The translations under genes were made by a program, and so were the position numbers. From contig JBAWWL010000005.1 in the NCBI GenBank assembly GCA_037146775.1, positions 33,848 through 97,847 of the forward strand: a stretch of 64,000 bases of DNA, read 5' to 3'. How positions within the stretch are numbered: the first letter of the stretch is position 1; each line of letters begins with the position of its first letter. The notes beneath the pieces were generated by a model. It was not told the origin of the DNA. It made no database searches and saw only the letters and a program-made list of their open reading frames with translations. The stretch comes from Candidatus Omnitrophota bacterium. GTDB taxonomy: Bacteria > Omnitrophota > Gorgyraeia > Duberdicusellales > 4484-171. Positions 373 to 16,490 of this stretch are shown piece after piece.

Positions 373-1323
373 ATGGAAAGCTGGGATTTCGAAAAACCGG
401 TTATTGAAATAGAAAAAAAGATCGGAGAGCTTAAAAAGTTTTCCGAAGAGAAAGACGTTGATTTGTCTTCGGAGATCAACAGTTTGGAGAAGAAACTAAA
501 AACACTTAAGAAAGGAATTTATTCTAATTTAGTTCCCTGGCAGAAAATTCAAATTGCCCGCCATCCTCACCGGCCAGCCACTCGTGATTATATCGATGCC
601 ATTATGAAAGATTTCGTCCTTTTGCACGGCGACCGTCTCTTTGGTGACGACAAGGCCATTATTTCAGGATTCGCCACATTAGACACTCAGAAAGTAGCGG
701 TCATCGGTCATCAAAAAGGCAGAGACACAAAAGAAAATATTGCCCGCAACTTCGGCTGCGCGAATCCCGAAGGTTATCGTAAAGCGATACGTATTATGCG
801 TTTGGCGGAACGTTTCGCCATGCCTGTTATTTGTTTCGTGGATACACCGGGCGCTTATCCCGGTATCGGCGCAGAAGAGCGGGGCCAGGCTTTAGCTATC
901 GCGGAAAATATCCGGGACATGTTTTATATAAAAACGCCTATCATAGTAGTGGTGATTGGGGAAGGCGGCAGCGGTGGAGCGCTGGGTATCGGCGTAGGAG
1001 ACAGGGTGATACTTATGGAGTACTCATACTATTCTGTCATTTCTCCCGAGGGCTGCGCCGCTATTCTTTGGAAAAATTCCGAACAAAAAAAAGAAGCCGC
1101 CAAAGTGTTAAAATTAACCGCTCCGGATTTATTAGCCTTGGGCGCGATTGATGAGATTATCCCCGAGCCGGAAGGCGGCGCTCATCGTAACCCTGCGGAA
1201 GCGGCAAAAAATTTAAAAGAAACTCTGCTTAGGAACTTGAATATATTAACCGGCATTAACCTTGATAAGCTTCTTGAACTGCGTTATATGAAGTTTAGGA
1301 AGATGGGGGTTTTTAAGGAGTGA
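373..1323 (+). CDS. accA: acetyl-CoA carboxylase carboxyltransferase alpha subunit
   Basis: 316 aa. AccA-like N-terminus (LDFEKPI.ELE.KI..L). Conserved carboxyltransferase core (FVDTPGAYPG, GEGGSGGAL). Confidence 0.85.
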   Translation: MESWDFEKPVIEIEKKIGELKKFSEEKDVDLSSEINSLEKKLKTLKKGIYSNLVPWQKIQIARHPHRPATRDYIDAIMKDFVLLHGDRLFGDDKAIISGFATLDTQKVAVIGHQKGRDTKENIARNFGCANPEGYRKAIRIMRLAERFAMPVICFVDTPGAYPGIGAEERGQALAIAENIRDMFYIKTPIIVVVIGEGGSGGALGIGVGDRVILMEYSYYSVISPEGCAAILWKNSEQKKEAAKVLKLTAPDLLALGAIDEIIPEPEGGAHRNPAEAAKNLKETLLRNLNILTGINLDKLLELRYMKFRKMGVFKE

Positions 1324-1838
1324 TAATTCAGAAACTTATCATTCTGGGGATTTTAAAAAAAGGGCCAAAACACGGATATCAGATAAAGAAAATTATTCAA
1401 AACGAATTAGGCCTTTTTTCCGAGCCGGAAACTCAATCTATTTATTATCCCCTCAAGCAGATGGAAAAGGGTGGCCTGATCAAAAAAGAAGTGGTTAAGG
1501 CCAAAGGCCGCCTGCCGCATTATACCTACACGATTACTCCCCACGGAAGTAAAGAGTTTACCAGACTGGCAATGCAAGCTTTACTTTCTCGCAAGCGCCC
1601 TTTTATTGATATCGACATCCCGTTATATTTTTTACCCTATCTGGACAAGAAGGAAGTTGTCGCCCGTCTGCGGCTGCGTAAACGTTTCCTGGAAAAAGTA
1701 AAAGAGTGGCTCGAGGCAAAGCTATGTACCCGCAAGGAATTTTCTTTTCAGCAACTGTTGTTGTTAAAGCACAATCTTAATCTGCTTACCGCCGAAGAAA
1801 AATTCTTGGAGGAAATGACCCAAGCTATACGGACATAG
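1320..1838 (+). CDS. PadR-family transcriptional regulator
   Basis: Winged-helix PadR signature (ILGIL..GPKHGYQI...YYPLKQMEKGGLI). GTG start overlaps the accA stop and the SD, so the start is uncertain. Confidence 0.55.
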   Translation: MIIQKLIILGILKKGPKHGYQIKKIIQNELGLFSEPETQSIYYPLKQMEKGGLIKKEVVKAKGRLPHYTYTITPHGSKEFTRLAMQALLSRKRPFIDIDIPLYFLPYLDKKEVVARLRLRKRFLEKVKEWLEAKLCTRKEFSFQQLLLLKHNLNLLTAEEKFLEEMTQAIRT

Positions 1839-1861: not shown

Positions 1862-2242
1862 ATGGCAAAAAAAATTTTAATCGTCGAGGATGAACAAGAA
1901 ACATCAGCATTTCTGAAAAATAAGTTGAACCAACTTAACTTTCATACTGAAACTTCCGGAGATGGCGGTGACGCTATAAACAAGATGAAAACATTTATGC
2001 CGGATCTGGTTCTTTTGGATATTATGCTTCCCGTTATTGACGGTATAGAGGTCTTAAAATGGATAAAGACAAACCAGCCTCAGGTCCTGGTGATTATGAC
2101 TACCGCGAAAAAAGAGGTCTCGGACCTTAAAACAGGCTATTCTTTGGAAGCTGATTATTATATTACCAAGCCTTATACTTTTGAGGAAATTATAAAGGGT
2201 ATTAACGTCTTGATGTCGCTTAAGGGCGATGAAGTCAATTGA
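1862..2242 (+). CDS. stand-alone response-regulator receiver (CheY-like) domain protein
   Basis: 126 aa. ILIVEDE...DLVLLDIMLP..DG...ITKP receiver motifs with the phospho-acceptor Asp context. No output domain. Confidence 0.7.
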   Translation: MAKKILIVEDEQETSAFLKNKLNQLNFHTETSGDGGDAINKMKTFMPDLVLLDIMLPVIDGIEVLKWIKTNQPQVLVIMTTAKKEVSDLKTGYSLEADYYITKPYTFEEIIKGINVLMSLKGDEVN

Positions 2243-2323: not shown

Positions 2324-3664
2324 ATGAAGACAGAATTTTCTATTCATAGCCTTAGCGTAAAGAGAAAAATCTGGATTGCTATTTCGCTTGTTACCTGCAT
2401 CCCTTTCATTCTTCTGTTCCAGTATCTTAGCGGTTACCATATTTCTTTTTGGGCCGGCATGGCAGCGCTCGTGCTTGTTCTGTTAGGCTGGTGGATTGTT
2501 TTTGAGGTTTTTTCTTCAATCGCCAAACTCTATTCGCAATCAAGGAAGACGCTTGAAAAAATAGGCGAATACCCCCCGCTGATAACCAACGAAGTGGAAA
2601 GCCTTGATTCGGTCATTAATATTCTTTCTTCAAAAGTAAAAAGCAGCTTCGAGCAGCTCAAGGAATTTAGCCAGAAAACAGACGAGCTTAGCAAAGAAGT
2701 ATCGAAGAAAGTTTTTGTGTTATCAACCATACTGCAGGCAAACGATTTATTTTCCAAAGAAGTGCCTTGCGAGGAAATACTGCAATTTTTCATCCAGCGT
2801 TTATCCGAAACCTTGCGCATGAAAGTGGCCTTTTTCGCCTGCCGCAGCAATGAGGCAGGGAAATTGGTGGTGGTTACGTATATGGGAGTGGATGTTTCCA
2901 AAGTTGAGAATATTTTTGAAAAAGATCAAGCCCAGCTATCTAAAATAAAAAGGCCGGTAGTAGTTGATGCCAAAAACAAGTCCGGCGCCTATGCGGTGTT
3001 ACCCAAAGAATTGGGGACAGAAAATATTGTTCTTAACCCGGTAATATCAAAGGGTCAAATCATCGGCCTGTTGTGTGTCGGCAACAATGACGATAGTTTT
3101 GTGTTCAACGATGACGATCTGAACACCTTAAATCTTTTCTCGCAGAATGTTTCCCTTATCTGGGAACACGAGAAGCTCTCTGTCAAGGTAGATGAGCTTG
3201 AGGTGTTTGATTACTTGACCGGTTTGTATAACGAAAAGTTTTTAATAAAACGTCTGGATGAAGAGATCGGTAGGGCTTTAATTTATCAGCGGCCGTGCGG
3301 TTTCTTGTTGCTGGAAATATCGAATTACGATGATTACCAGAAAAACGTGGGGCTTTTGGAGGCCGAGAAGCTGGTTAAAAAAGCGGGAAAAATTTTTAGA
3401 GAAACTCTGCGGCCTATCGATATTCCCGCTAGGCTTGGGCCGAATCGCCTCGGCGCAATACTGATCGAAAAAAATAAACGGCAATCACAAACGGTTGCGC
3501 AGAGCGTCAAAGAAAGATTGATCTACGTGTTTAAAGAGCAAATCGACCTGACTTTTTCGGTGGCTGAGAACCCCATAGACGGCACTACCGCCCAAGAACT
3601 CATACAGTTCGCCCAAACTCACATTAGCCCGTCAGGAGCCAATGAACTCCCCCAAAAGGATTGA
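2324..3664 (+). CDS. membrane protein with a degenerate GGDEF domain (intact I-site RxxD, active site GGEEF replaced by GPNRL)
   Basis: N-terminal TM helices. GGDEF-fold start DYLTGLYNEKFL. RPID-IPAR-LGPNRL aligns to PleD RAID-LPCR-YGGEEF. Confidence 0.6.
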   Translation: MKTEFSIHSLSVKRKIWIAISLVTCIPFILLFQYLSGYHISFWAGMAALVLVLLGWWIVFEVFSSIAKLYSQSRKTLEKIGEYPPLITNEVESLDSVINILSSKVKSSFEQLKEFSQKTDELSKEVSKKVFVLSTILQANDLFSKEVPCEEILQFFIQRLSETLRMKVAFFACRSNEAGKLVVVTYMGVDVSKVENIFEKDQAQLSKIKRPVVVDAKNKSGAYAVLPKELGTENIVLNPVISKGQIIGLLCVGNNDDSFVFNDDDLNTLNLFSQNVSLIWEHEKLSVKVDELEVFDYLTGLYNEKFLIKRLDEEIGRALIYQRPCGFLLLEISNYDDYQKNVGLLEAEKLVKKAGKIFRETLRPIDIPARLGPNRLGAILIEKNKRQSQTVAQSVKERLIYVFKEQIDLTFSVAENPIDGTTAQELIQFAQTHISPSGANELPQKD

Positions 3665-4082
3665 GAAGCCTCTTGGCCAGATCTTGGTAGAAAGAGGTGT
3701 GATTAACCCCACACAACTCGAAAGGGCTCTTGATCTTCAGAAGAAAGAAGGCGGCCTTATCGGCGAGGTAATCGTAAAACTTGGTTTTGCTAAAGAGGAA
3801 GATATTGCCCATTGCCTTTCATTGCAATTCGGCTTTCCATACCTGCCCCTTGAAAACTACGAGGTATCCAGAGAGGTGGTTAGCCTTATCCCGAAAGGCG
3901 TCGCCAGCCACTACTGTTTGATTTCCCTCGATAAGATAGGCAATACCGTTACTATCGCTATGGCTAATCCGTTAAATCTTCAGGCAATAGAAGATTTGGA
4001 AGATTTAACCAAGAGTGATATTCAGGTATTTGTGAGCACGCCGACGGACATACGCAAATGTATAGAAAAATTCTATACCTAA
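3642..4082 (+). CDS. stand-alone T2SSE_N / MshEN-type domain protein (putative c-di-GMP receptor)
   Basis: 146 aa. Two 24-aa motifs PLGQILVERGVINPTQLERALDLQ and LIGEVIVKLGFAKEEDIAHCLSLQ separated by a 5-aa spacer (KKEGG). Both fit RLGxxLLxxGLLxxxxLxxxLxxQ. Confidence 0.65.
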   Translation: MNSPKRIEKPLGQILVERGVINPTQLERALDLQKKEGGLIGEVIVKLGFAKEEDIAHCLSLQFGFPYLPLENYEVSREVVSLIPKGVASHYCLISLDKIGNTVTIAMANPLNLQAIEDLEDLTKSDIQVFVSTPTDIRKCIEKFYT

Positions 4083-4120: not shown

Positions 4121-5851
4121 ATGCTGAAAGAAAAATTTACCGATTATTTGCTTGAGAAAAAATTAATTTCCAAAGAAGACCTGGAAAAGGTCCTTACTCT
4201 TCAGAAAGAGAAGGGCGGTTCCCTGGTCGAACTTTTCATAAAGCTTGGGTGCATGCAAGAGGCTCAACTTCTTAATATTCTTTCCGGCTACCTCTCTATT
4301 CCGCCGATGCGGGTGATCAATCTGGCTATCGCCCAGGAGACTATCAGCTTAATTTCCGAACGTTTTGCCCGCAGTTTCCACGTTATCCCCATCGGTAAAA
4401 TCGGTAACAGCATTACTCTGGCTATGGCAGACCCCCTGAATGTGGTGGTTATCGACGACTTAAAGAAAATTACCGGTTGTGAGATTAACCCGGTGATTGC
4501 GCCTTTGTCGGAAATAAAAGAAGCCATTATTGCCCATTACACCCGGCCGCCCACAGACTCTATCGAAGAGATCATCAAGGGCCAAAAAGCGGAAGCAATC
4601 GAAATTATTAAGCAGGAAAAAGTATTGCAGAACCAAACCCTGGAAACCATTGACGAGGCGCCGGTAATGAAATTTACCAACTCGCTGCTTAAACGGGCTG
4701 TGTCTGACCGGGCATCGGACATCCTGTTAGAGCCTTTAGAGAAATCAAGCAGGGTAAGATTCCGTATCGACGGGCTTCTGCGGGAGGTAGAGACATTTTC
4801 CAAAAAAATCCACCCTTTTGTGATATCGCGCATCAAGGTTATGTGTAATCTTAATATCGCGGAGCACCGCTTGCCTCAAGAAGGAAGGTTCCGTAGCTCA
4901 ATTTTAGAGCGTAGCGTAGACTTCCGAGTTTCGATTGTGCCTTCCAGCTTAGGGGAGAAAGTTGCTATGCGTATTTTAGATAAAAATACCGCGCTTTTGG
5001 ATTTGGAGCTGTTGGGCTTTGAGGCTGACGTGCTCAAACAGATGAGAGCAGACAGTAAAAGGCCTCACGGTTTAATGTTGGTGTGCGGCCCGACCGGCTC
5101 AGGTAAAACCACCAGCCTTTACTCGGTTATTTCCTATATTTATAGTCCGGAGCGTAACATTATCACTGTAGAAGACCCTATAGAGTATCAGTTAAAAGGT
5201 ATTAACCAGGTAAGCATTAATCCCGCCATCAACCTGACTTTTGCTTCGTGCTTGCGCTCAATCTTGCGCCAGGATCCGGATATTATCATGGTGGGTGAAA
5301 TCAGGGATTTTGAAACCGCAGATATTACCATCAAGGCGGCTCTCACCGGCCATTTGGTTTTTTCAACCCTGCATACCACAACCAGCGCCGGCTCTGTTAC
5401 CCGTCTTATCAATATGGGCATTGAACCATTCCTGCTTTCTTCTACTTTAATAAGCGTTCTCTCTCAGCGTTTAGTGAGAAAGCTATGCCCCAAATGCAAA
5501 GAAGAGGCAGTGATCCTTGAAAGTATCCGGGAAAAATATGGTATCGATAAAAAAACGAAACTATACAAGGCAGTAGGCTGTAACTCCTGCCAGCAGACAG
5601 GATATAGAGGCCGTATTGCTTTAAGCGAGTATTTACCGATTTCGCCAAAGATACGGTTTTTAGTGAATGCGGCCACTTCGGAGCACGTGATAAAAAAAGA
5701 AGCCCGTATGTTGGGTATGCGTACGCTGCGTGAAGACGGCATCCTGAAGCTCAACACCGGCCTCACTACTTTAGAGGAAGTGCTTAAGGTAACGGGGGCG
5801 GACGAACCATTGGGGTCAGAAGTCAGAGGTCAGAAGACAGAAGACAGATGA
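4121..5851 (+). CDS. pilB: type IV pilus assembly ATPase PilB/GspE family (paralog 1)
   Basis: 576 aa. N-terminal T2SSE_N domain. Walker A GPTGSGKTT, Asp box, His box. C-terminal tetracysteine (CPKC...CNSC). C-terminal tail GSEVRGQKTEDR is encoded by the heptamer-repeat array. Confidence 0.85.
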   Translation: MLKEKFTDYLLEKKLISKEDLEKVLTLQKEKGGSLVELFIKLGCMQEAQLLNILSGYLSIPPMRVINLAIAQETISLISERFARSFHVIPIGKIGNSITLAMADPLNVVVIDDLKKITGCEINPVIAPLSEIKEAIIAHYTRPPTDSIEEIIKGQKAEAIEIIKQEKVLQNQTLETIDEAPVMKFTNSLLKRAVSDRASDILLEPLEKSSRVRFRIDGLLREVETFSKKIHPFVISRIKVMCNLNIAEHRLPQEGRFRSSILERSVDFRVSIVPSSLGEKVAMRILDKNTALLDLELLGFEADVLKQMRADSKRPHGLMLVCGPTGSGKTTSLYSVISYIYSPERNIITVEDPIEYQLKGINQVSINPAINLTFASCLRSILRQDPDIIMVGEIRDFETADITIKAALTGHLVFSTLHTTTSAGSVTRLINMGIEPFLLSSTLISVLSQRLVRKLCPKCKEEAVILESIREKYGIDKKTKLYKAVGCNSCQQTGYRGRIALSEYLPISPKIRFLVNAATSEHVIKKEARMLGMRTLREDGILKLNTGLTTLEEVLKVTGADEPLGSEVRGQKTEDR

Positions 5852-5890: not shown

Positions 5891-6256
5891 GTGAAAATTA
5901 AAAGTGTAAAAGATTTGAAAGTATATAATATTGCTTACAGTTTAGCAATGGAAATATTTACAACAACAAAGAGTTTTCCCAAAGAAGAAATTTATTCATT
6001 AACAGACCAGATTAGGCGTTCTTCCCGTTCGGTGGCGATTAACATAAGGGAGGGTTTTGCAAAACGAAGATACGAGCAAGTATTTACACGTCATTTAAAT
6101 GATGCTTTTGGTTCTAGTGAAGAAACGAGAGGTTGGCTGAATTTTGCTAAAGATTGTCAATATATATCGCAGAAAATATACGAAAAATTAGATAAGCAAT
6201 ACGATGAGTTAAACGCAATGATATACGTTCTTATGAATAGTTGGCACGCTTTCTAG
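5891..6256 (+). CDS. four-helix-bundle protein (23S rRNA intervening-sequence protein family, PF05635-like)
   Basis: 121 aa. Family-typical N-terminus (IKSVKDLKVYNIAYSLAMEIF) and SSRSVAINIREG motif. GTG start. Confidence 0.6.
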   Translation: MKIKSVKDLKVYNIAYSLAMEIFTTTKSFPKEEIYSLTDQIRRSSRSVAINIREGFAKRRYEQVFTRHLNDAFGSSEETRGWLNFAKDCQYISQKIYEKLDKQYDELNAMIYVLMNSWHAF

Positions 6257-6339: not shown

Positions 6340-8019
6340 GTGAATGTAAAAGAGAAAATTTTAGACTACATCAAAACAACCAAGCCGATAGAGAAGGGGC
6401 TTTTGAAAAACATTGAAGGCACGGCAGATTATACTCATTTTAAACACATGCTTATTGAACACAATTTAATCAGCGAGGAGGAGTTGCTTCTTGTATTTTC
6501 CAAAGAATTCAAAATGCCTTTTTTAGACTTAAAAAAATACCGCATACCGCACAAAAGCAAAGATTTGATTCCCCGGGAAACCGCTTTTAAATACCGGGTT
6601 TTCCCTTTGTGTAAAATCGGCACTGTCCTGACTATCGCTACTTCTAATCCCCTGGATATTATTGCTTATGACGATATAAAAATAATTACCGGCGTTGAAA
6701 AGGTGGATTTGGTTCTTTGCCGCGAGGAAGATATTTTGAAAGCGCTCGATAACCTATACAAAATGGATGATATCAGCAAATTAGTAGATGAAGATTCTTC
6801 TATCGAGGTCGGTGAAGCTTTCGAAGCGAAAGAATCTTTAGAAACTTTAATCGAAGAAAGCAGCCGCCCGCCGATCGTGCGAGCGGTTGATTTGTTTATT
6901 TATAATGCGCTCAAAAAACGGGCGTCGGATATTCATATTGAACCGTATCAGGACAGGCTGCTGGTAAAATACAGGGTGGACGGAGTATTGTGCGAAGAGT
7001 TTAATTTTCCCAAAAAGAACCAGCAAGCTGTTTTAGCGCGCTTAAAAATAATTTCTTCACTGGATATTACCGAATCGCGCCTTCCCCAGGACGGCAGGTT
7101 CAAAGTTAAGTTTGAGGATCGGGAGATTGATTTTAGGGTATCCAGCCTGCCTACGAATTTCGGGGAAAAATTCGTATTGCGGGCGTTGGATAAAGAAAAC
7201 CTTTCTATTGGTTTAAGAAAATTAGGTTTTTCCGAAGAGCCGCTTAGACTCTTTGAGGGTGCGATTAAGGCGCCATTCGGCATTATTATAGTTACCGGTC
7301 CCACGGGGAGCGGGAAATCTACAACCCTGTATTCCATTGTCAGCCAAATAAATACGCCCGAGAAAAATATTGTCACTATCGAAGACCCCATAGAGTACCA
7401 ACTTGAAGGCATTACTCAATTGAGCGTGAGTACGGACATAGGGCTTACTTTTGCCGCCGGCTTGCGTTCAGTGTTACGCCAGTCACCGGATATTATCATG
7501 GTGGGGGAAATCAGAGATTCGGAAACCGCGGACATTGCTATTAAAGCCGCACTTACCGGAGAGATCATACTTTCTACTTTACATACGAATACGGCGGTAG
7601 GCGCGCTTACCCGGCTCATTGATATGGGTATAGAGCCGTTTTTACTTGCTTCCTCTCTGGTTGCTACCACGGCCCAACGTTTAATACGCAAGCTATGCCA
7701 GAAATGCCGGGAAAAATATCAGATAGAAGAAGAGGTCTTGAAAAAATTAAATGTCAACACTAAAACGAACGAATTTTACCGGCCTAAAGGCTGTCATTAT
7801 TGTAATGATACCGGTTATCATGGACGCATTGCGATCTTGGAAGTTTTGCTTTTAGATGATAGAATGAAAGAAATGATTGTTGAGCGCCGTTCAGAAGATG
7901 AGATTACCCAGTATGCCATCAAAGAGCGCGGATACAGGCCTTTGCGTGAAGATGGTATTTTGCGCTGCGTGGAGGGTGTTACTTCGCTTGAAGAAGTGTT
8001 GAGGGCGACGACGGAGTAG
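6340..8019 (+). CDS. pilB: type IV pilus assembly ATPase PilB/GspE family (paralog 2)
   Basis: 559 aa. GTG start with GGAGG SD. N-terminal T2SSE_N-like domain. Walker A GPTGSGKST. Tetracysteine CQKC...CHYC. Confidence 0.85.
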   Translation: MNVKEKILDYIKTTKPIEKGLLKNIEGTADYTHFKHMLIEHNLISEEELLLVFSKEFKMPFLDLKKYRIPHKSKDLIPRETAFKYRVFPLCKIGTVLTIATSNPLDIIAYDDIKIITGVEKVDLVLCREEDILKALDNLYKMDDISKLVDEDSSIEVGEAFEAKESLETLIEESSRPPIVRAVDLFIYNALKKRASDIHIEPYQDRLLVKYRVDGVLCEEFNFPKKNQQAVLARLKIISSLDITESRLPQDGRFKVKFEDREIDFRVSSLPTNFGEKFVLRALDKENLSIGLRKLGFSEEPLRLFEGAIKAPFGIIIVTGPTGSGKSTTLYSIVSQINTPEKNIVTIEDPIEYQLEGITQLSVSTDIGLTFAAGLRSVLRQSPDIIMVGEIRDSETADIAIKAALTGEIILSTLHTNTAVGALTRLIDMGIEPFLLASSLVATTAQRLIRKLCQKCREKYQIEEEVLKKLNVNTKTNEFYRPKGCHYCNDTGYHGRIAILEVLLLDDRMKEMIVERRSEDEITQYAIKERGYRPLREDGILRCVEGVTSLEEVLRATTE

Positions 8020-8167: not shown

Positions 8168-9370
8168 ATGGCGAGTTTTTCTTATCATATCAAAAACAGG
8201 GAAGGCAAGGATGTCAAGGGTATTGCCGAAGCCGAGTCAAAAGAAAAACTAATAGAGTATTTTCAGAAGGAAGGTTTTGTCATTTTCGATATTTTCGAAA
8301 CCAAGCGGAAAACAAAAGTTTCCCGCTACGGAAAAATTTCCAGCGAAGACTTAGTGATTTTTTCCCGCCAACTTACCACCTTGATTGAAAGTAACATTTC
8401 CATCGTCGAAGCTTTAGAGATTCTTAAGTCCCAGGTGGAGAAGCCGTTTTTTAGAGAAGTATTAGGCATGGTGTTGAAAGATGTACGCGAAGGCTCTTCG
8501 CTTTCCAGCGCTTTTGCCAAGCACGCGCGGGTATTTCCGGAAATCTATATCAGCATGGTTGAAGCAGGTGAGGCCAGCGGAAATTTAGCATCCATTTTAG
8601 AGCGCGTGTCAGGGTATCTTGAGAAAAGCAGCGCTCTACGCAAAAAAGTAATTTCATCTTTATATTACCCCGTGATTATCGTTCTGATGGCAACTGCGAT
8701 TACCGGCTTCCTGCTTTTGAAGGTCATCCCGACTTTTAAGAGTGTTTTTGATTCGTTGGGAGGAAAGCTTCCTCTACCTACACAAATTTTAATATTAGTC
8801 TCCAACTTTTTACAGGCATATTTCGTTTATCTTGTTATCGGATTTGTTGCGGCTATTATTTTATTTTTGCGTTATATCAACACCAACAGAGGAAAACGGC
8901 AATACCACAAGTTACTTATCCGGCTGCCGATCGTAGGTGATTTAGTTAAAAAAATTGCCATTGCCCGTTTTTCCCGCACTTTTGCCACCTTAATCAAAAG
9001 CGGCGTATCGATTATCAAATGTTTGGACATTGTAGCTAATACTTCCGGCAACAAAATTATCGAGGACGCGGTGAAAAAATCAAAAAAACTTATCCAGGAA
9101 GGCCAAACCATTTCTACTCCCCTGGAAGAAAGTGGTATTTTTCCCCCTATGGTAGTTAAGATGGTGGCCATAGGCGAAAAAAGCGGTAAATTGGAGGAGA
9201 TGCTTTCCAAGATAGCGCAATTCTACGAAGAACAGACTGATGCCATGGTAGCCGGACTTTCCAGCCTGATTGAGCCGGTTATTATCGCCTTTTTAGGTGT
9301 GATTGTGGGTGGTATAGTTGTTTCTTTATTCCTACCGATTTTCCAGATTACTCAATATCTGAATAAATAA
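8168..9370 (+). CDS. pilC: type IV pilus inner-membrane platform protein PilC/GspF family
   Basis: 400 aa. Duplicated GspF domain. Three TM segments. Typical PilC N-terminal cytoplasmic domain. Confidence 0.85.
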   Translation: MASFSYHIKNREGKDVKGIAEAESKEKLIEYFQKEGFVIFDIFETKRKTKVSRYGKISSEDLVIFSRQLTTLIESNISIVEALEILKSQVEKPFFREVLGMVLKDVREGSSLSSAFAKHARVFPEIYISMVEAGEASGNLASILERVSGYLEKSSALRKKVISSLYYPVIIVLMATAITGFLLLKVIPTFKSVFDSLGGKLPLPTQILILVSNFLQAYFVYLVIGFVAAIILFLRYINTNRGKRQYHKLLIRLPIVGDLVKKIAIARFSRTFATLIKSGVSIIKCLDIVANTSGNKIIEDAVKKSKKLIQEGQTISTPLEESGIFPPMVVKMVAIGEKSGKLEEMLSKIAQFYEEQTDAMVAGLSSLIEPVIIAFLGVIVGGIVVSLFLPIFQITQYLNK

Positions 9371-9887: not shown

Positions 9888-10310
9888 ATGAAAAAAGGTT
9901 TTACTCTTGTAGAAATTATGATCGTAGTCGCAATCATTGCCTTATTGGCGGCCTTAGCCATACCTAACCTGTTAAGGTCAAGATTAAATGCTTCGGAAGG
10001 GTATGCTCAAGCAACCTTAAGAGCTATTTCGACGGCTGCTGAAAGTTATGCTGCTGCCCATGAGGGGAAATATCCAGCGGTCAGTCTCACTGCAGATTTA
10101 TTTGGCGCTGACCCAAAATATATCAACAAAGATTACGTAGCGGATTGTACTGCTGGAAGTCCTTGTCAGGGGTATAGTTTTGCTTATACCGCTGCTGTTA
10201 CGGGTTACACTTCAACCGCCACACCGCAAGGAGCCCTTGTTGCTAAGGCAAAATCATACAGTATTACTACTGGTGGTGTTTTGACCGGCGCAGTTGCTGC
10301 GGCAGAATAG
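9888..10310 (+). CDS. pilA: type IVa major pilin (prepilin, N-methylation site G|FTLVE)
   Basis: MKKG|FTLVEIMIVVAIIALLAALAIPN class-III signal peptide. C-terminal Cys pair (DCTAGSPCQGY). AAGGAGG SD. Confidence 0.85.
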   Translation: MKKGFTLVEIMIVVAIIALLAALAIPNLLRSRLNASEGYAQATLRAISTAAESYAAAHEGKYPAVSLTADLFGADPKYINKDYVADCTAGSPCQGYSFAYTAAVTGYTSTATPQGALVAKAKSYSITTGGVLTGAVAAAE

Positions 10311-10330
10311 GACTTAGTTGTTTCGATTAT

Positions 10331-10366
10331 AACCGCCTCTTTAAAAAAGAGGCGGTTTCTTATTTT
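10331..10366 (+). terminator. rho-independent terminator after pilA1
   Basis: aaccgcctcttt-aaaa-aaagaggcggtt stem-loop followed by tcttatttt. Confidence 0.8.
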
Positions 10367-10478
10367 CTGGCAGATATTTTATGTAAATATCTGCTTTACG
10401 TTGATGCTCCATACGTATATAATAAAATATAATCTTCCTTGCATCGAATAGCAGGATTTTCCAAGGTTACGGTGAAGA

Positions 10479-10922
10479 ATGATGAAAAAATATAGCAAGA
10501 ACCATTCGATATTTAAGACATTTACTCTGGTGGAAATAATGATTGTGGTGGCCATCATAACAGTATTGGCGACATTACTCAGTCTTAACCTTTTAAGGGC
10601 AAAATTACACAGCGCTGAAGCCAATGCTCAAGCGACGTTACGGGCTATCTCTACTGCCTTAGAGTCCTATGCGAGCGCGAAAGCAGGGGCTTTCCCTGTG
10701 GGTAACAATCTTAGCCTGTTATATAACGAAGACCCAAAATATATCAACAAAGATTATGTAACTGACTGCACTGTTGGAAGCCCTTGCCAGGGATATGCTT
10801 ATAGCTGCAACTTGAGCTTAGCAGGTTATACCTGCAGCGCAACTCCTCAGGGTAACTATCATAACGCCAAAACATTTACCGTTGAAACCGGCGGCGTTTT
10901 GAAGGAATTTGCTAACCAATAG
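10479..10922 (+). CDS. pilin paralog with atypical leader (Thr instead of Gly at -1)
   Basis: MMKKYSKNHSIFKT|FTLVEIMIVVAII. C-terminal block DPKYINKDYVTDCTVGSPCQGY is nearly identical to pilA1. Confidence 0.7.
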   Translation: MMKKYSKNHSIFKTFTLVEIMIVVAIITVLATLLSLNLLRAKLHSAEANAQATLRAISTALESYASAKAGAFPVGNNLSLLYNEDPKYINKDYVTDCTVGSPCQGYAYSCNLSLAGYTCSATPQGNYHNAKTFTVETGGVLKEFANQ

Positions 10923-11093
10923 CCTTATTTCCCGCCAAACGTCATCATGTTTTTACCACTTTGGTAAAATATTCTAGCTTGCAGGCCAGGGACGGACAAC
11001 GCGATTGTCTCTTTTTATAAACCTTGAAAATAAAGCCTTTTTCACAAGAGATACGTTGACAATGCAATACCTGAGTAATAGAATAATACCAAA

Positions 11094-12089
11094 ATGCAAT
11101 TTCCATACACCAAATTTCTAAATTTTGGCGAGTTTTTCAATAAAAAGAACGAAGATTTTGTCGCTATTAATGTAGGCAATTATCACGTCAAGGGGTTGAT
11201 AGTAAAATCAGGCAAACCAACCGACTATTTTTTGAAAGAAAGAAAAGACATATCAACAACCCTCAAAGAAATCTGGCAAGAAAAAAAGATTACTACCGAT
11301 AACGTAGCAATTTCCGTTAAAGACCCCACCACATTGACCAGATATTTTCCTTTTCCGAAAATCGATAAGAAAAAACTGCGCCAGAGCCTGTTTTACGAAC
11401 TCAATAAACACATTCCTTTTTCTCCGGAAGAGGTATATTTTGATTTTGCTCTTTTAGGAGACGCAAGTCCAACGCAATCATGGTTATTGCTCGCCGTAGC
11501 TAAAAAAGAATTTATCAATAACATACTGGATATCTTCACTCGCGAAAAACTAAACGTCACGTATATCAGTTTAGACAGTATTTGCCTGGTGAATTTTTTT
11601 CTTCATTACTACGATCAGCACAAAAAAACAAATACTTGTCTTTTAGATGTCGGAAGCAGCTTTTCGACGCTGACGATATTGCGTTCTGGCGTACCGTTTT
11701 TAACCAGGGATATAAGCTTTAGCGCTAAGGATGTTTTTGGGGTTATTTCTCATATCAAAAATATTCCGTTACCTGAAATAGAAAAGCAGCTACTTTTGCC
11801 TAACAACCAGGAGCTGCTTGAGCTCGCGCAGGATAGCCTGACAAATTTGTGCAAAGAGGTGAAAAACTCCTTTGATTATTTTGAAGTGAACAAAGGCGAG
11901 CATATAGAACAAATGTATCTTTCCGGTGGCTTAACCTATCTGGCGGGTGTCGAAGCTATTTTTAAGGACTATTTAGGCATTGAGACCGCGTTATTGAGTA
12001 ATACGCAAGCCGCGGCAGCGGGATTTTCTGACGAGGCCTTTCAAAAGCTAAAGAGAAGTTTTACGGTTGCTTTCGGCCTTTTGGTATAA
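11094..12089 (+). CDS. pilM: type IV pilus assembly protein PilM (actin-like ATPase fold)
   Basis: 331 aa. Position upstream of pilNOPQ. Acetate/sugar-kinase-like fold motifs. Confidence 0.75.
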   Translation: MQFPYTKFLNFGEFFNKKNEDFVAINVGNYHVKGLIVKSGKPTDYFLKERKDISTTLKEIWQEKKITTDNVAISVKDPTTLTRYFPFPKIDKKKLRQSLFYELNKHIPFSPEEVYFDFALLGDASPTQSWLLLAVAKKEFINNILDIFTREKLNVTYISLDSICLVNFFLHYYDQHKKTNTCLLDVGSSFSTLTILRSGVPFLTRDISFSAKDVFGVISHIKNIPLPEIEKQLLLPNNQELLELAQDSLTNLCKEVKNSFDYFEVNKGEHIEQMYLSGGLTYLAGVEAIFKDYLGIETALLSNTQAAAAGFSDEAFQKLKRSFTVAFGLLV

Positions 12090-12094
12090 TAGCC

Positions 12095-12649
12095 ATGGAA
12101 AAAATAAGTATTAACTTAAATCCGCAAAAGCAACAACCCGTAAGCTCTTTCTTGGGGCAGGGCCTGCGCTATGCTTTACTTGCGGCGTTAGGTTTAGGCA
12201 TAGTGGTAATTATTGGTGGTATTTTTTTAATTATCCAAGCGGGCATACTTGGGTATTATGAAGGAAAATGGAAACAATGGGCAGATAAGTTTCAAACCAT
12301 TGATGTCATCAAGAAAGAAGTAGCCAACTTAGAAAGTGAGCGTAACGAATTCCAGAAAATAATCACTCCGCAAATCCAGATAGCAGTAATTTTTCAGGAC
12401 ATTTTTGTGTCTCTGCCCAAAAATACCTGGCTTGAACAGCTTAGTTTTAAGAAAGATTCGGTTAGCCTTCGGGGGTACGTGATTAAGATAGGAGAAGATT
12501 ACCTGGCAACATTAGATACGTTTGTCGACGCTCTTAAGGAAAAAAAATATTTTTCTTCAAAATTTAGCAAAATAACCATAAAAAGTTCGCAGACAAAAAA
12601 TTATAATGGAATGGAGGCAATGGAGTTTGTTATAGAATGCGTAAACTAA
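12095..12649 (+). CDS. pilN: PilN-like bitopic membrane protein
   Basis: 184 aa. Single N-terminal TM helix. Synteny between pilM and pilO. Confidence 0.6.
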   Translation: MEKISINLNPQKQQPVSSFLGQGLRYALLAALGLGIVVIIGGIFLIIQAGILGYYEGKWKQWADKFQTIDVIKKEVANLESERNEFQKIITPQIQIAVIFQDIFVSLPKNTWLEQLSFKKDSVSLRGYVIKIGEDYLATLDTFVDALKEKKYFSSKFSKITIKSSQTKNYNGMEAMEFVIECVN

Positions 12650-13182
12650 AAATCGAAAGAAACGTTATAATCTTTACCGCAATTATTGCAATCGCTGTCT
12701 TAGAGCTTTTGGTGTTATTGCCCCTGGAGGTGTCTCGAATTGTTGCTGTGCAGAAGAAGATTTCTGGCATAAAACGTAATCTTGTTACTATCGAAACAGA
12801 CTGGCCCAATAAAGATACCTATATCCGCAACCAAGAGGCAATTAGAGAGGCAATTGTGGGTACGCATGGAAAATTTGTCAGCCCACAAGAGGCATCCAAC
12901 CTGTTTTCTTTTATTTCTTCGGGAGGAAAAAAATTTAACGTAGAAATAAAAGTACTTAACCCTGCTGATTTGCAGGAATACGCTTCTACCAAGGCCGGAA
13001 AAATAAAATATTTGCCTATTACTATTTCTTTGCAAAGTTCGTTTCACAATCTTGCTCGCTTTTTGGAATATCTGCAGACCAGTCAATATTTCTTTGAGGT
13101 CAAGGAACTTAAAATTGGTTCTGGTTTTCCCACAAATGCGGTAGAAATGGTGTTATGTGGTTTAGTAAAAACAAAAGAATAG
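12637..13182 (+). CDS. pilO: PilO-like bitopic membrane protein
   Basis: 181 aa. Single TM helix. Synteny. Confidence 0.55.
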   Translation: MRKLKIERNVIIFTAIIAIAVLELLVLLPLEVSRIVAVQKKISGIKRNLVTIETDWPNKDTYIRNQEAIREAIVGTHGKFVSPQEASNLFSFISSGGKKFNVEIKVLNPADLQEYASTKAGKIKYLPITISLQSSFHNLARFLEYLQTSQYFFEVKELKIGSGFPTNAVEMVLCGLVKTKE

Positions 13183-13508
13183 TTATCGTGGCCGGCTTGG
13201 CGTTGCTGTGTGCCTGTACTCTTTTTGCCAAAGAAGAGAAATACCCTTTTGACCAGAATACTCGCGATCCTTTTTTACCTTTGGTCAGCAAGACAGGCCA
13301 ACTGCTTATACAAAAAGAAGCGACGCAGGGCGGTATGGTGCTTAAAGGTATCATCTATTCGTCTCGAGGGAGCTTAGCAATTATAAGTAATGAAGTATTT
13401 AAAAAAGATGATAAAATAAATGATTATAGTATAATGAAAATAGGCCGAAAGAAAGTTATTTTAAAAAAAGGTAAAGAAATACTTGTTTTAAAGTTGGAGG
13501 GAAAATGA
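13155..13508 (+). CDS. pilP: PilP-like lipoprotein
   Basis: 117 aa. Signal peptide with Cys. Conserved RDPF motif. Position immediately before the secretin. Confidence 0.5.
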   Translation: MWFSKNKRIVIVAGLALLCACTLFAKEEKYPFDQNTRDPFLPLVSKTGQLLIQKEATQGGMVLKGIIYSSRGSLAIISNEVFKKDDKINDYSIMKIGRKKVILKKGKEILVLKLEGK

Positions 13509-15133
13509 TCAAATATCGAATGTCTGATAATATGGGTCAGAAGTCAGAGGTCAGAAGTCAGAGGTCAGAAGTCAGAGGACAGATGTCAGAGGACAGACGA
13601 CAGAGGTCGGATGTCAGATTTTTCTGTTTTCTTCTTTGTGCCTTCTGTTTTCTGACAACAGCCTTCTACCCTCTGTTTTCTTTTGCCCAGGAGGAGATTA
13701 TTCCGGTTATTAAATTTAAAGACGCGGATATCAAGGTGGTGCTGCAATCTATAGCCCAGAAGGCTGTTAAGGACGGGCGGAAGGTAAATATTGTTATCAG
13801 CCCAAAGGTGGAGGGCTTGGTGACAGTTGATTTGGAAAGTGTTAACTGGCAGACTGCGCTCAAGGGTGTGCTCAATGCCTACGGTTATAGTTATCGTTGG
13901 GCAGGGGAGAACATTATTTTGGTAGCGACAATTGATGAAATTAAAGAGCGCGAGGTGCAAGATAAAGAAAGACAGGAAATCGAAGTTCCCAAGATCAAGA
14001 TTTTTAAATTAAAATATATTGATGCAAATGATGCGAAAAAAACTATTACTCCTTTGCTTTCTCCGGTTGGTAAAGTGTCTGTTTTGGAGGCTACTGGCCA
14101 AGCAGGATGGGAGTTTGGAGACGATTTTGCTAAGCGTAAGAGGGCAGAGCAGGGACAAATTTCCCGCACTAAATCATTAATAGTTTCCGATGTTTCAAAA
14201 AGCCTGGAAGAGATAGAGAAATTGCTGGTTGAGGTAGACATTATGCCCAAACAGGTGTTGATAAAAGTCAAGATTATGGAAGTTGACAAGGATGTGCTAG
14301 ATGACATTGGTTTTGAATGGGGAACAGGAAAAGGTGGAGCCGGAGGAGTGTCGTTTGATCAGTTAGACGTTAATGGTAAAAATACAAAAAATTTAGGTGG
14401 TCGCATGTGGACTGGAGTGGATCCTTCTGTTTTGACAGATGGTGGTTTAAATACGGCCAAAGAAGGATTGAAGATCGATTTTAAGAGTATTACCGGCTCA
14501 CAGTTTGAAGTGATTATGCATGCCTTGGAAAAAGACAAACGAGCAATCACCCTTTCCGCACCTTCTATTTTAACTCTGAACAATCAAGAGGCTTCGATAT
14601 TGGTGGGTTCGAAATTTCCCATAGTCAAAACCCAGGTAAGCGAACAAAGCAACCAGATTATTGGTGGTTCCTTAGAAAAATATCAGGATATCGGTATACA
14701 GTTAAATGTAGTACCGCAAATATGCGGCGAAGAGGAAAATTATGTAAATATGATTCTACACCCGGTAGTTTCAACCAAGACCGGGACTGTGGATATTAAA
14801 ACTACTGCTGACCCGCCGACAATACTTGCGCAATATCCGATGCTTGAGGTCAGAGAGGCGCAAACGCAGGCAGTCGTCAAGGATGGCGAAACCATTGTTT
14901 TAGGTGGTTTATTGAAAGACGCCAAATCAAAAGAATATAGAGGTATCCCGGTTTTAGATAAGCTTCCTTTTTTCGGTTCTCTTTTTAGGCGCGAGGGTGA
15001 TAATAGATCAAAAATAGATTTATTGATCTTTATCACCGCGCACGTGATACGGCAAGGAGAAGTTCTGCCGCAGGAAGCAATAAACATAACTCCGGTTACT
15101 TCCAAGTTCAAAAGAAAACAAAATGTATACTGA
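13505..15133 (+). CDS. pilQ: type IV pilus secretin PilQ
   Basis: C-terminal secretin signature (VLGGLL...RGIPVLDKLPFFGSLFR). The N-terminus is interrupted by heptamer repeats, so the true start may be the ATG at 13583. Confidence 0.85.
   Translation: MIKYRMSDNMGQKSEVRSQRSEVRGQMSEDRRQRSDVRFFCFLLCAFCFLTTAFYPLFSFAQEEIIPVIKFKDADIKVVLQSIAQKAVKDGRKVNIVISPKVEGLVTVDLESVNWQTALKGVLNAYGYSYRWAGENIILVATIDEIKEREVQDKERQEIEVPKIKIFKLKYIDANDAKKTITPLLSPVGKVSVLEATGQAGWEFGDDFAKRKRAEQGQISRTKSLIVSDVSKSLEEIEKLLVEVDIMPKQVLIKVKIMEVDKDVLDDIGFEWGTGKGGAGGVSFDQLDVNGKNTKNLGGRMWTGVDPSVLTDGGLNTAKEGLKIDFKSITGSQFEVIMHALEKDKRAITLSAPSILTLNNQEASILVGSKFPIVKTQVSEQSNQIIGGSLEKYQDIGIQLNVVPQICGEEENYVNMILHPVVSTKTGTVDIKTTADPPTILAQYPMLEVREAQTQAVVKDGETIVLGGLLKDAKSKEYRGIPVLDKLPFFGSLFRREGDNRSKIDLLIFITAHVIRQGEVLPQEAINITPVTSKFKRKQNVY
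13536..13618. repeat. tandem heptanucleotide repeat array, locus D (about 12 units) inside the annotated 5' end of pilQ
   Basis: gtcagaa gtcagag x3 then gacagat gtcagag gacagac ... Translates to SEVRSQRSEVRGQMSEDRRQRSDVR. Confidence 0.8.
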
Positions 15134-15920
15134 TTATTACGGCCTAAAAACTTCACCTTTTGATATTACCAGTAATCCGCACATTTTTTTCGAGAGCGGC
15201 TCGCACAAGGAAGCGCTTGCATGTCTTGTGTACGGTATCAGCGAGAAAAAAGGTATTATACTGATCACCGGCGAAGTGGGAACCGGTAAAACCACTCTTT
15301 GTAAAGCGCTGCTGACTAAATTGCCGCCGCAGGTCAAAACGTCGCTGACGCTCAACCCTTATTTTAGCGAGGTCCAGTTGTTACAGGCAATTGTTGAGGA
15401 TTTCGGTCTGACTCTGAAGAAGAAAAGCCGTTTAGATATTATAAAAACACTGAATGCTTTTTTGGTTGATATCAGCGCACAAGGTGGTAACGCAGTGGTG
15501 ATTATTGACGAGGCGCAGAATTTAACCAGCAGGCAGCTTGAACAGATTCGCCTACTGTCTAACCTGGAAACCTCAAATGAAAAGTTATTGCAGATAGTGC
15601 TTTCCGGCCAGCCGGAACTGCAAGAAAAACTTAATCAATTCAACTTGCGCCAGATCCGCCAGCGCATCTGCATTAAATATAATATTGCACCTTTGGGAGA
15701 AGAAGAAGTGAAAGACTATGTGCAGTTTCGGCTTAAACTTGCCGGACAAAATGATATTAGTATTGTACCGGAAAGTTTCAAGGTTATTTATGAATTTTCC
15801 CGAGGCGTTCCCCGCTTAATTAACGTGCTGTGCGACAGGGCCCTATTGTGCGGCTTTGTGAAGGAGCGCAAAGTTTTTGACGAAGAAATTTTCCGTACCT
15901 GCATCGAAGAATTAAAATAA
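15123..15920 (+). CDS. ExeA/GspA/MshM-like AAA+ ATPase
   Basis: 265 aa. Walker A GEVGTGKTT. ExeA-family N-terminus (YGL...PF). Lacks a long periplasmic C-terminal extension. Confidence 0.7.
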   Translation: MYTDYYGLKTSPFDITSNPHIFFESGSHKEALACLVYGISEKKGIILITGEVGTGKTTLCKALLTKLPPQVKTSLTLNPYFSEVQLLQAIVEDFGLTLKKKSRLDIIKTLNAFLVDISAQGGNAVVIIDEAQNLTSRQLEQIRLLSNLETSNEKLLQIVLSGQPELQEKLNQFNLRQIRQRICIKYNIAPLGEEEVKDYVQFRLKLAGQNDISIVPESFKVIYEFSRGVPRLINVLCDRALLCGFVKERKVFDEEIFRTCIEELK

Positions 15921-16004: not shown

Positions 16005-16490
16005 ATGAGTATAATTTACGAAGCGCTACAGAAAGTTGAAAAGAAATCCGAGCTCGCGAGTATGCCTGTTATGCCGGAAAAAGAAATATTTTCTTCCCGG
16101 CCAAACACTTTTAACCTGCCGCTGGCGCTGCTTGCTTTGGTTGTCCTTCTTTCTTTGGGTTCAACCGGAGCGAAATTGATGACTGCAAAATCAGCTCGTA
16201 CCAGTAAAGTGGCTGTTATGCGCCCTCAGCCTCACAAACAAGTTGTAACGCCTTCGACTGATGTTTCTGTCGCACCCCAGGCTGATTTTGCTTCTGATAC
16301 TGTCGTTACGAATGTACCCTATAGCTTGCAAGGCATTATTTACGATAGCCAGCATCCTTTGGCGATTATCAACGGAAAACAGTTGGGCATAGGCCAAAGC
16401 ATTGAAGATGCTACGGTTATAGATATAACCCAAAAGGGAGTAGAACTGGCGGTGAAAGGAAATAAGATTTATATTTCTCTCGAAGAATAA
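16005..16490 (+). CDS. GspB/ExeB-like protein (partner of the ExeA-like ATPase)
   Basis: N-terminus MSIIYEALQKVEK resembles GspB MS.ILDALKK.E. One TM helix. C-terminal beta-rich domain. Confidence 0.45.
   Translation: MSIIYEALQKVEKKSELASMPVMPEKEIFSSRPNTFNLPLALLALVVLLSLGSTGAKLMTAKSARTSKVAVMRPQPHKQVVTPSTDVSVAPQADFASDTVVTNVPYSLQGIIYDSQHPLAIINGKQLGIGQSIEDATVIDITQKGVELAVKGNKIYISLEE

Follow-up and report, generated by a model that had tools for sequence, protein, structure and literature searches.

Does a small protein encoded directly upstream of the type IV pilus motor genes of a Candidatus Omnitrophota bacterium sense cyclic di-GMP (c-di-GMP) on behalf of that motor? The question is raised by a 64,000-nucleotide stretch of contig JBAWWL010000005.1 (GenBank assembly GCA_037146775.1), hereafter the window, in which an open reading frame (ORF) encoding a degenerate GGDEF protein of 446 residues (ORF A) is followed by one of 146 residues (ORF B) and then by two pilus extension ATPases, PilB1 and PilB2. 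A first-pass annotation of the sequence had described ORF A and ORF B, at these positions 5' of the extension ATPases, as paired c-di-GMP receptors, and had suggested that a separate polypeptide may have taken over the c-di-GMP input to pilus assembly. We found the layout to be as described. The locus is a split c-di-GMP sensor and motor module whose ligand binding is predicted, and we consider it somewhat better than an even bet (roughly 55%) that ORF B is a free-standing MshEN-type c-di-GMP receptor that would act in trans on the downstream type IV pilus motor. The features on which this reading depends are the following:

3634..3638, + strand: AGGAG Shine-Dalgarno sequence of ORF B, 3 nucleotides 5' of its ATG and within the 3' end of ORF A
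3642..4082, + strand: ORF B, 146 residues, free-standing MshEN protein made of a four-helix module and a T2SSE_N1 subdomain, no ATPase domain
3669..3740, + strand: predicted c-di-GMP motif 1 of ORF B (residues 10-33), PLGQILVERGVINPTQLERALDLQ
3741..3755, + strand: five-residue spacer KKEGG of ORF B (residues 34-38)
3756..3827, + strand: predicted c-di-GMP motif 2 of ORF B (residues 39-62), LIGEVIVKLGFAKEEDIAHCLSLQ
3828..4079, + strand: T2SSE_N1 (MshEN_C) subdomain of ORF B (Pfam MshEN, residues 63-145)
4121..5851, + strand: PilB1, full-length type IV pilus extension ATPase with its own N-domain (T2SSE 441 bits, TIGR02538 581 bits)
4133-4291, + strand: degenerate c-di-GMP motif in the PilB1 N-domain (residues 5-57)
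6340..8019, + strand: PilB2, second full-length extension ATPase (T2SSE 440 bits)

ORF B consists of an MshEN domain only, with neither a T2SSE ATPase domain nor Walker motifs in its 146 residues. Its residues 63-145 match Pfam MshEN with 67.3 bits, and its residues 10-62 match the NCBIfam profile NF053729 ('cyclic di-GMP-binding domain, MshE-related') with 65.5 bits (E 2.7e-18; cutoff 38 bits), covering the full length (positions 1-53) of a 53-position profile that represents the 24+5+24 c-di-GMP module. This agrees with the first-pass description of a free-standing T2SSE_N domain carrying two 24-residue motifs around the spacer KKEGG, and the spacer is five residues long in all 54 of the free-standing homologs examined for it. 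In MshEN domains, the backbone amides of Gly3 contact the guanine and the residue at position 1 stacks on it. Across 121 family members, Gly3 of both motifs (G12 and G41) is present in 121/121 sequences and Gln24 in nearly as many (Q33 in 118/121, Q62 in 121/121). G12 of motif 1 is joined by the near-invariant L11, I14, L15, G19, L26, L30, and Q33, and in motif 2 L39, G41, I55, and Q62 are invariant, with I40 and L59 conserved. The residues that contact the ligand in MshE (Gly3, Gln24, and the hydrophobic triads) are hence invariant or nearly so throughout the family. Gly3 is also the position at which substitutions have been found to matter: binding by MshE is abolished by G11L and 72-fold weaker with G40I (PMC5013675 supplement), the strongest effect in NfrB came from G491L (PMC8669469), and the residue was singled out again in a study of PilF (PMC12002112). 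In four of the free-standing relatives (P0002, P0003, P0005, and P0112; 202-218 residues), the 53-residue module occurs twice in a row, complete in both copies, ahead of one N1 subdomain.

The motifs depart from the proposed consensus RLGxxLLxxGLLxxxxLxxxLxxQ at one point. They are intact otherwise, and at position 1, where the consensus has Arg, motif 1 of ORF B has Pro and motif 2 has Leu; Arg occurs there in 0/121 family members, which have Pro or Gln in motif 1 and Leu in motif 2, and the residue just before motif 1, K9, is conserved. The Leu of motif 2 fits the extended consensus (R/K/L)LG, to which the motif was widened by the authors of a study of PilF GSPII-B, a domain in which position 1 of motif 2 is natively Leu and which binds with a KD of 6 nM (2 nM in the K167L variant; PMC11731258). 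As for motif 1, it is opened by PLGQ in the validated c-di-GMP binders PA14_29490 and NfrB, the latter with a dissociation constant (Kd) of about 1 µM (PMC8669469).

The predicted structure is also that of an MshEN domain. The AlphaFold2 model of ORF B (predicted local distance difference test score (pLDDT) 90.3; predicted template modelling score 0.80) has helices at residues 11-17, 23-36, 40-46, and 52-63 followed by an alpha/beta subdomain, with residues 1-7 disordered, and its top PDB match in Foldseek is MshE with c-di-GMP (5HTL; E 1e-11, template modelling scores 0.79/0.83, root-mean-square deviation 2.4 Å). The concern, raised at the outset, that the motif helices might not form this fold was not borne out. 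The matches also include the N1 domain of EpsE with EpsL (2bh1), the GspE-GspL complex (4pht), and the FimX-PilZ-PilB complex (7LKM). Judging from these models, the T2SSE_N1 subdomain of ORF B is probably a protein-docking surface; it is a homolog of the N1 domain with which GspE docks on GspL, and it would engage PilB1/PilB2 or PilM/PilC. We considered the fold as a discriminator of c-di-GMP binding and rejected it, as the non-binding GSPII-A domain of PilF matches almost as well as ligand-bound MshE.

A more informative comparison is offered by the ATPases encoded next to ORF B. The two motifs of the PilB1 N-domain read KFT.../SLV..., with Thr and Val at the Gly3 positions and Tyr in place of the second Gln; the helical pattern is kept, and NF053729 is matched with 41.2 bits, just above its cutoff. 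The loss therefore affects specific ligand-contact residues and not the helical scaffold. PilB2 has no NF053729 match and no recognisable motif 1 (motif score 12/22). Both proteins carry Walker A and tetracysteine motifs. The earlier observation that the glycines are substituted in the N-domains of these paralogs thus holds here and in about 80 orthologs, with Gly3 absent in 43/43 PilB1 and 37/37 PilB2 orthologs examined. Given the effects of G11L and G40I in MshE and the role of Gly3 in PilF, a loss of c-di-GMP binding by the ATPases is a well-founded inference. These N-domains bear on the alternative that ORF B is a ligand-free structural adaptor, that is, a spare PilB N-domain that would serve as a 'landing pad' or compete for docking on PilM/PilC, and whose motifs are kept for the fold or an interface. 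Such an adaptor would be in line with the second-best fold match of ORF B, which is the non-binding PilF GSPII-A, and with the conservation of its C-terminal docking subdomain, which is as strong as that of the motif half. PilB1 and PilB2, however, keep the fold without Gly3 and the second Gln, and these residues are therefore not needed for folding; with the paralogs as an internal control, the invariance of the glycines, and the invariance or near-invariance of the glutamines, among the 121 ORF B sequences points to selection for the ligand and not for the fold. The duplication of the 53-residue module with both copies intact in some relatives, and the presence of cyclase and HD-GYP genes within the same operons in divergent loci (see below), also speak against an adaptor without ligand, which we consider unlikely.

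To place ORF B in a wider context, we compared its homologs and 50 non-redundant loci that have a free-standing MshEN gene of ~145 residues and belong, where named, to Omnitrophota. The best 120 of the 673 homologs are 142-218 residues long (mostly about 145) and 53-96% identical, and all those named among them come from Candidatus Omnitrophota; outside this group, every match of the same search was to an N-domain that is part of a full-length PilB. In 39/40 loci, the start of a pilB gene is no more than 400 nucleotides 3' of the free-standing MshEN gene, and two PilB paralogs follow it in 32 loci. In 40/46 loci, an ORF A homolog is encoded in the 1.5 kb upstream of the MshEN gene, either directly adjacent (21 loci) or with a PilT-like gene in between (19 loci), and the junction between the A and B genes is overlapping or at most 15 nucleotides long in 21/24 loci of clade 1, to which the window belongs. 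In the second Omnitrophota clade (L024-L047), the intervening gene encodes a PilT-like ATPase of ~355 residues without an N-domain (e.g. L024 5921-6988). Mean identity within clade 1 is 71% for ORF B, 65-72% for the ATPase cores, 50-54% for the PilB N-domains, and 47% for ORF A. With the PilB N-domains of Nitrospirota, Elusimicrobia, and Thermoanaerobaculia, whose motifs are intact and read '...ALDLQKKEGGRIG...', ORF B moreover has an identity of 40-44%, compared with 35% and 29% for the neighbouring N-domains of PilB1 and PilB2, respectively. The fused copies have thus drifted, whereas the free-standing copy has retained the sequence of the ancestral sensor. Together with the phylum-wide synteny, this closer likeness supports the proposal of a c-di-GMP input relocated to a polypeptide of its own. 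The tandem pair of full-length PilB proteins is kept in about 32 Omnitrophota loci and hints at a hetero-oligomeric or dual-function extension motor.

The same comparison bears on a trivial origin of ORF B as an annotation or assembly artefact or pseudogene, in which a frameshift would have split off the N-terminus of PilB1. The label 'type IV pilus assembly protein PilB' that the Joint Genome Institute (JGI) gives to ORF B homologs would fit such an origin. PilB1, however, has a complete N-domain and a start codon of its own, ORF B, in a different frame, comes with a separate Shine-Dalgarno sequence and stop codon, and a distinct gene of ~145 residues recurs across 50 independent loci (identity up to 96%). 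We therefore rejected a split-gene or pseudogene origin, to which we attach practically no weight.

Several points weigh against ORF B as a c-di-GMP receptor of the pilus motor. The Pro at position 1 of motif 1 is outside both the strict and the extended consensus. The second-best fold match, PilF GSPII-A, still did not bind when its consensus was restored, owing to an extended N-capped helix alpha1 and inter-subdomain contacts (PMC12002112), and an intact motif is therefore necessary and not sufficient for binding; alpha1 of the ORF B model begins at residue 11, a feature of a predicted structure that cannot settle the accessibility of the site. With PilB1 scoring above the NF053729 cutoff, its presumed loss of binding follows from the glycine substitutions only. 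The free-standing MshEN gene occurs without an A-family gene in three loci (L023, L032, and L048), and one Omnitrophota MshEN-only protein of 154 residues with a poorly kept motif 2 is encoded outside a pilus gene context (L081 5001-5465). No active cyclase gene was found in the window by a regular-expression scan for GGDEF, EAL, HD-GYP, and PilZ, which gave no GGDEF or PilZ match and, for EAL and HD-GYP, matches to short patterns only, without a profile check. Giant Omnitrophota proteins with GGDEF domains, and PilZ genes next to them, have been reported (bioRxiv 10.1101/2023.11.21.568195), from which c-di-GMP synthesis in this organism would be expected.

What, then, is the role of ORF A, which the first-pass annotation had taken for a second, non-catalytic c-di-GMP receptor? 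The relevant features are these:

2324..3664, + strand: ORF A, 446 residues, built of membrane hairpin, long coiled coil, GAF domain, linker helix, and degenerate GGDEF domain
2357..2512, + strand: predicted transmembrane hairpin of ORF A (about residues 12-35 and 42-63), from hydrophobic stretches and model helices
2771..3157, + strand: GAF domain of ORF A (residues 150-278; Pfam GAF (30.6 bits), GAF_2, and GAF_3)
3410..3421, + strand: RPID of ORF A (residues 363-366), a motif of the I-site type RxxD, from sequence alignment
3437..3451, + strand: GPNRL of ORF A (residues 372-376), in the place of the catalytic GG(D/E)EF, from alignment

ORF A matches Pfam GGDEF over residues 295-432 (57.5 bits, E 1.9e-15), and its AlphaFold2 model (pLDDT 78) comprises helices at residues 12-35, 42-80, and 90-144, the GAF domain at 149-262, a helix at 263-292, and the GGDEF domain at 296-432. 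The best Foldseek matches are GAF/PHY-GGDEF cyclases, and those of its 405 homologs that are named belong to Omnitrophota. The outer loop of the hairpin is very short, and ORF A is therefore predicted to have no periplasmic sensor domain; its least conserved part is the GAF domain (36% mean identity). The protein reads R363-P-I-D366-I-P-A-R370-L-G372-P-N-R-L376, so that GPNRL does occupy the place of GG(D/E)EF, and RPID precedes it by the same five residues as in PleD (RAID-LPCRY-GGEEF). Across 121 close homologs the GGDEF columns vary as [GSAD][PSLA][NDSK][TKRA]L, and the catalytic metal and substrate positions (DxD..FK..ND..GH..GD) are altered, with ORF A reading EISNYDDYQKNVGLLEAE where WspR reads DVDYFKAYNDNFGHLEGD in the alignment. 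On these grounds we rejected ORF A as an active diguanylate cyclase. Of the two halves of the claim, the non-catalytic one is therefore sound, and the receptor half is weaker than it was put: RxxD is a feature of the window's clade, so that the description as 'paired receptors' suits ORF B, as a predicted MshEN-type receptor, better than ORF A.

We thus weighed whether ORF A binds c-di-GMP at all. It may instead be an interaction or scaffold protein, with the degenerate GGDEF domain as its interaction module, the GAF domain as its input, and RPID as a relic of a cyclase. RxxD is replaced in deeper orthologs by TEID and TEIG (clade 2) or EVGQ (L016, L018, and L019), and other motifs (DxLTGLYN, EExxR, YQRPC, E348, R370, and ExNK[RK]) are invariant family-wide; the family is therefore conserved for something besides the I-site, most simply, as far as sequence can tell, for a protein interface. 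No clearly conserved secondary I-site arginine, corresponding to PleD R390, PelD R402, or B. cereus PelD R395, was found; the residues 28-32 positions after D366 are variable, and K396 (K or R in 92/121) is a candidate only. PelD was not found among the top 50 Foldseek matches of ORF A or in a sequence search of PDB chains, and we rejected ORF A as a member of the PelD family on these searches, keeping PelD solely as an architectural analogue. On the other hand, in the window's clade R363 (109/121), D366 (121/121), and R370 (121/121) are kept beside GGDEF positions that drift, which argues that the I-site loop is under selection there, and RxxD-dependent binding of c-di-GMP by a degenerate GGDEF domain is established for PelD of P. 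aeruginosa and B. cereus (PMC7112168). The retained RxxD supports a putative I-site in the window's clade only, and a purely non-receptor role of ORF A is, to our minds, a serious contender that stops a little short of an even chance.

The origin of the pair is suggested by divergent loci reached through a search of representative proteins, whose named relatives (for L077-L080 and L082) are from Omnitrophota only. In L078, L079, and L080, the gene order is MreCD-PBP2-RodA, a 304-residue transmembrane-HAMP-GGDEF protein, a 148-residue MshEN protein, PilB, PilC, and PilS/PilR, and the junctions between the cyclase and MshEN genes and between the MshEN and pilB genes are both 4-nucleotide overlaps. 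Here the GGDEF protein has intact DIDNFK..NDKYGH, RRYD, and YGGDEF motifs (Pfam 147 bits, compared with 57.5 for ORF A), the motifs of the MshEN protein are preserved, and Gly3 is once more missing from the PilB N-domain. In BLASTP, ORF A aligns with the L078 cyclase over the GGDEF domain (E 7e-13 at 29% identity), and the two proteins are also related over the membrane hairpin at the N-terminus (E 1e-8). In L082, a 1333-residue GGDEF-AAA-HEAT protein gene overlaps the MshEN gene upstream of the pilus ATPases, and in L077 (9821-10861) a REC-like/HD-GYP protein (HD_5 152 bits; HHERYDGKGYP), a possible local c-di-GMP sink by its sequence, is encoded between PilB and PilC of a divergent MshEN-PilB operon. 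The gene sets of L077-L080 and L082 therefore define a recurring unit in which a free-standing MshEN protein is combined with a pilus ATPase and an enzyme of c-di-GMP turnover. ORF A is better read as a degenerate descendant of a dedicated diguanylate cyclase, and in the window's lineage the cyclase has, judging by these alignments, decayed to a pseudo-enzyme to which a GAF domain was added.

Starting from what is observed, namely the domain identity, motif integrity, predicted fold, conservation, and synteny of ORF B together with the degenerate PilB motifs and the degenerate GGDEF site, we propose the following mechanism, in which ligand binding by ORF B, its protein partners, and the direction of its control (activation or inhibition) are inferred. 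The four-helix module of ORF B (residues 10-62) would bind one c-di-GMP, upon which its T2SSE_N1 subdomain would dock on the PilB1/PilB2 ATPases or on the PilM/PilC platform, and this docking would switch pilus extension. The PilB N-domains, with their ligand-contact glycines gone, would no longer sense c-di-GMP themselves. ORF A would be the membrane-anchored, catalytically dead remnant of a cyclase that once fed ORF B locally, most likely acting as a scaffold or sensor that keeps ORF B at the membrane, and its RxxD may supply a second c-di-GMP-binding site. In a broader and more tentative version, which we hold to be possible at somewhat less than even odds, Omnitrophota and related lineages carry a natural fission of sensor and motor: a membrane cyclase, a high-affinity MshEN protein, and a 'blind' PilB would have formed a local three-protein relay, and in the window's clade the cyclase would have become a non-catalytic receptor or scaffold with GAF input, leaving the MshEN protein to read global or foreign c-di-GMP while tethered at the pilus base.

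The genes surrounding this core are those of a type IV pilus cluster:

1320..1838, + strand: PadR-family transcriptional regulator (Pfam PadR 52 bits), a member of the upstream cluster in the window's clade
1862..2242, + strand: single-domain CheY-like receiver (Pfam Response_reg 93 bits), syntenic and directly 5' of ORF A
5891-6256, + strand: 23S rRNA intervening-sequence / four-helix-bundle protein gene (PF05635 116 bits, TIGR02436), between PilB1 and PilB2
8168..9370, + strand: PilC platform protein (two T2SSF stretches, 202 bits)
9888..15133, + strand: two pilins, PilM, PilN, PilO, a small ORF, and the PilQ secretin (Pfam N_methyl, PilM_2, PilN, PilO, and Secretin)

All genes from PadR through PilQ, in the first 15 kb of the window, are on the + strand. 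ORF A and ORF B overlap by 23 nucleotides in different frames, and we found no convincing terminator between ORF A, ORF B, and PilB1. A PadR gene is at the equivalent position in six of the loci compared for synteny (L001, L002, L003, L007, L008, and L052). The 23S rRNA intervening-sequence protein has a weak match (26 bits) at the same place in L030 (9199-9564) and none there in the other loci examined, and a gene for an AAA_22 ATPase (101 bits) is directly 3' of the PilQ secretin gene (15123-15920, + strand). Two loci encode a second, divergent free-standing MshEN paralog between PilB2 and PilC (L023 11182-11634 and L048 11090-11551), and in neither is a homolog of ORF A close by. In the complete Omnitrophota chromosome CP070797.1 (L002), very large ORFs of 2118 and 2310 residues, both cut by the ends of the locus (1-2608 and 16363-16453), flank the pil region; PilB1 is apparently truncated there (297 residues), and PilB2 and PilC are missing.

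All domains involved are already known, as are a small MshEN-only protein (PA3740) and inputs to PilB in trans (FimX-PilZ). In the literature searched, we found PA3740 and multi-domain architectures and no description of stand-alone MshEN proteins adjoining pilB, which is not proof of absence; a phylum-wide, operon-fixed free-standing MshEN protein with blind PilB ATPases and a cyclase or pseudo-cyclase thus appears to be undescribed. Such an arrangement is useful because the route from c-di-GMP binding at the MshEN domain to the ATPase is unresolved in MshE and PilB, where the fused sensor and motor are not cleanly separable. A lineage in which they are naturally split permits a direct test in trans, since the sensor is conserved like the motor core, the motor's own N-domain is degenerate, and the translationally coupled gene upstream encodes a cyclase or the dead descendant of one. 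It could thereby be asked what the MshEN protein does to the ATPase once it has bound its ligand (activation, recruitment, or release), and by which surface. The locus also provides a functional lead for a gene that is labelled 'hypothetical' or, wrongly, 'PilB' in hundreds of assemblies of Omnitrophota, small and possibly host-dependent cells in whose lifestyle pili are thought to be central, and the series from the L078-type cyclase to ORF A documents the step-wise decay of a local-signalling cyclase to a pseudo-enzyme.

Finally, we compared this arrangement with known systems. Like V. cholerae MshE (5HTL) and other binding PilB/GspE N-domains, ORF B has the two-subdomain fold and a 24+5+24 motif in which each half contains Gly3 and Gln24, and both MshE and ORF B are tied to a type IV pilus extension ATPase. 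In MshE, however, the domain is fused to the ATPase and position 1 is Arg, whereas ORF B is a separate protein with Pro and Leu at these positions, next to ATPases that keep a degenerate copy. P. aeruginosa PA3740, a small c-di-GMP-binding protein with MshEN_N and a divergent T2SSE_N1 (Wang 2016, Supplementary Table 4), resembles ORF B in being small and in consisting of the MshEN module only, with no ATPase. Its N1 is highly divergent, whereas that of ORF B is canonical and highly conserved, and ORF B is in fixed synteny with pilB; the comparison with PA3740 covers its domains. T. thermophilus PilF has three GSPII domains, of which A is non-binding and B and C bind; as in the window, several MshEN-type domains per pilus ATPase share the labour between binding and non-binding copies, and PilF GSPII-B and ORF B have Leu at position 1 of motif 2, but all PilF domains are on one polypeptide, whereas here the copy predicted to be binding-competent is a separate gene product. 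The FimX-PilZ-PilB system of Xanthomonas (7LKM) likewise delivers a c-di-GMP input to the PilB N-domain in trans and includes one protein with degenerate GGDEF/EAL domains; it senses through a degenerate EAL domain with a PilZ adaptor, whereas the sensor here would be the MshEN domain. The dedicated membrane cyclase and MshEN receptor of E. coli DgcJ-NfrB parallel the overlapping GGDEF-MshEN pairs of L078-L080, and motif 1 of NfrB starts with PLGQ; the output of NfrB, however, is a glycosyltransferase fused to MshEN, and the corresponding cyclase in the window's lineage is no longer catalytic. PelD, finally, is like ORF A in having a membrane anchor, a GAF domain, and a degenerate GGDEF domain with RxxD beside an envelope-spanning machine, although the two have no detectable likeness in sequence or top-ranked fold beyond the shared domains and RxxD is not family-wide in ORF A.

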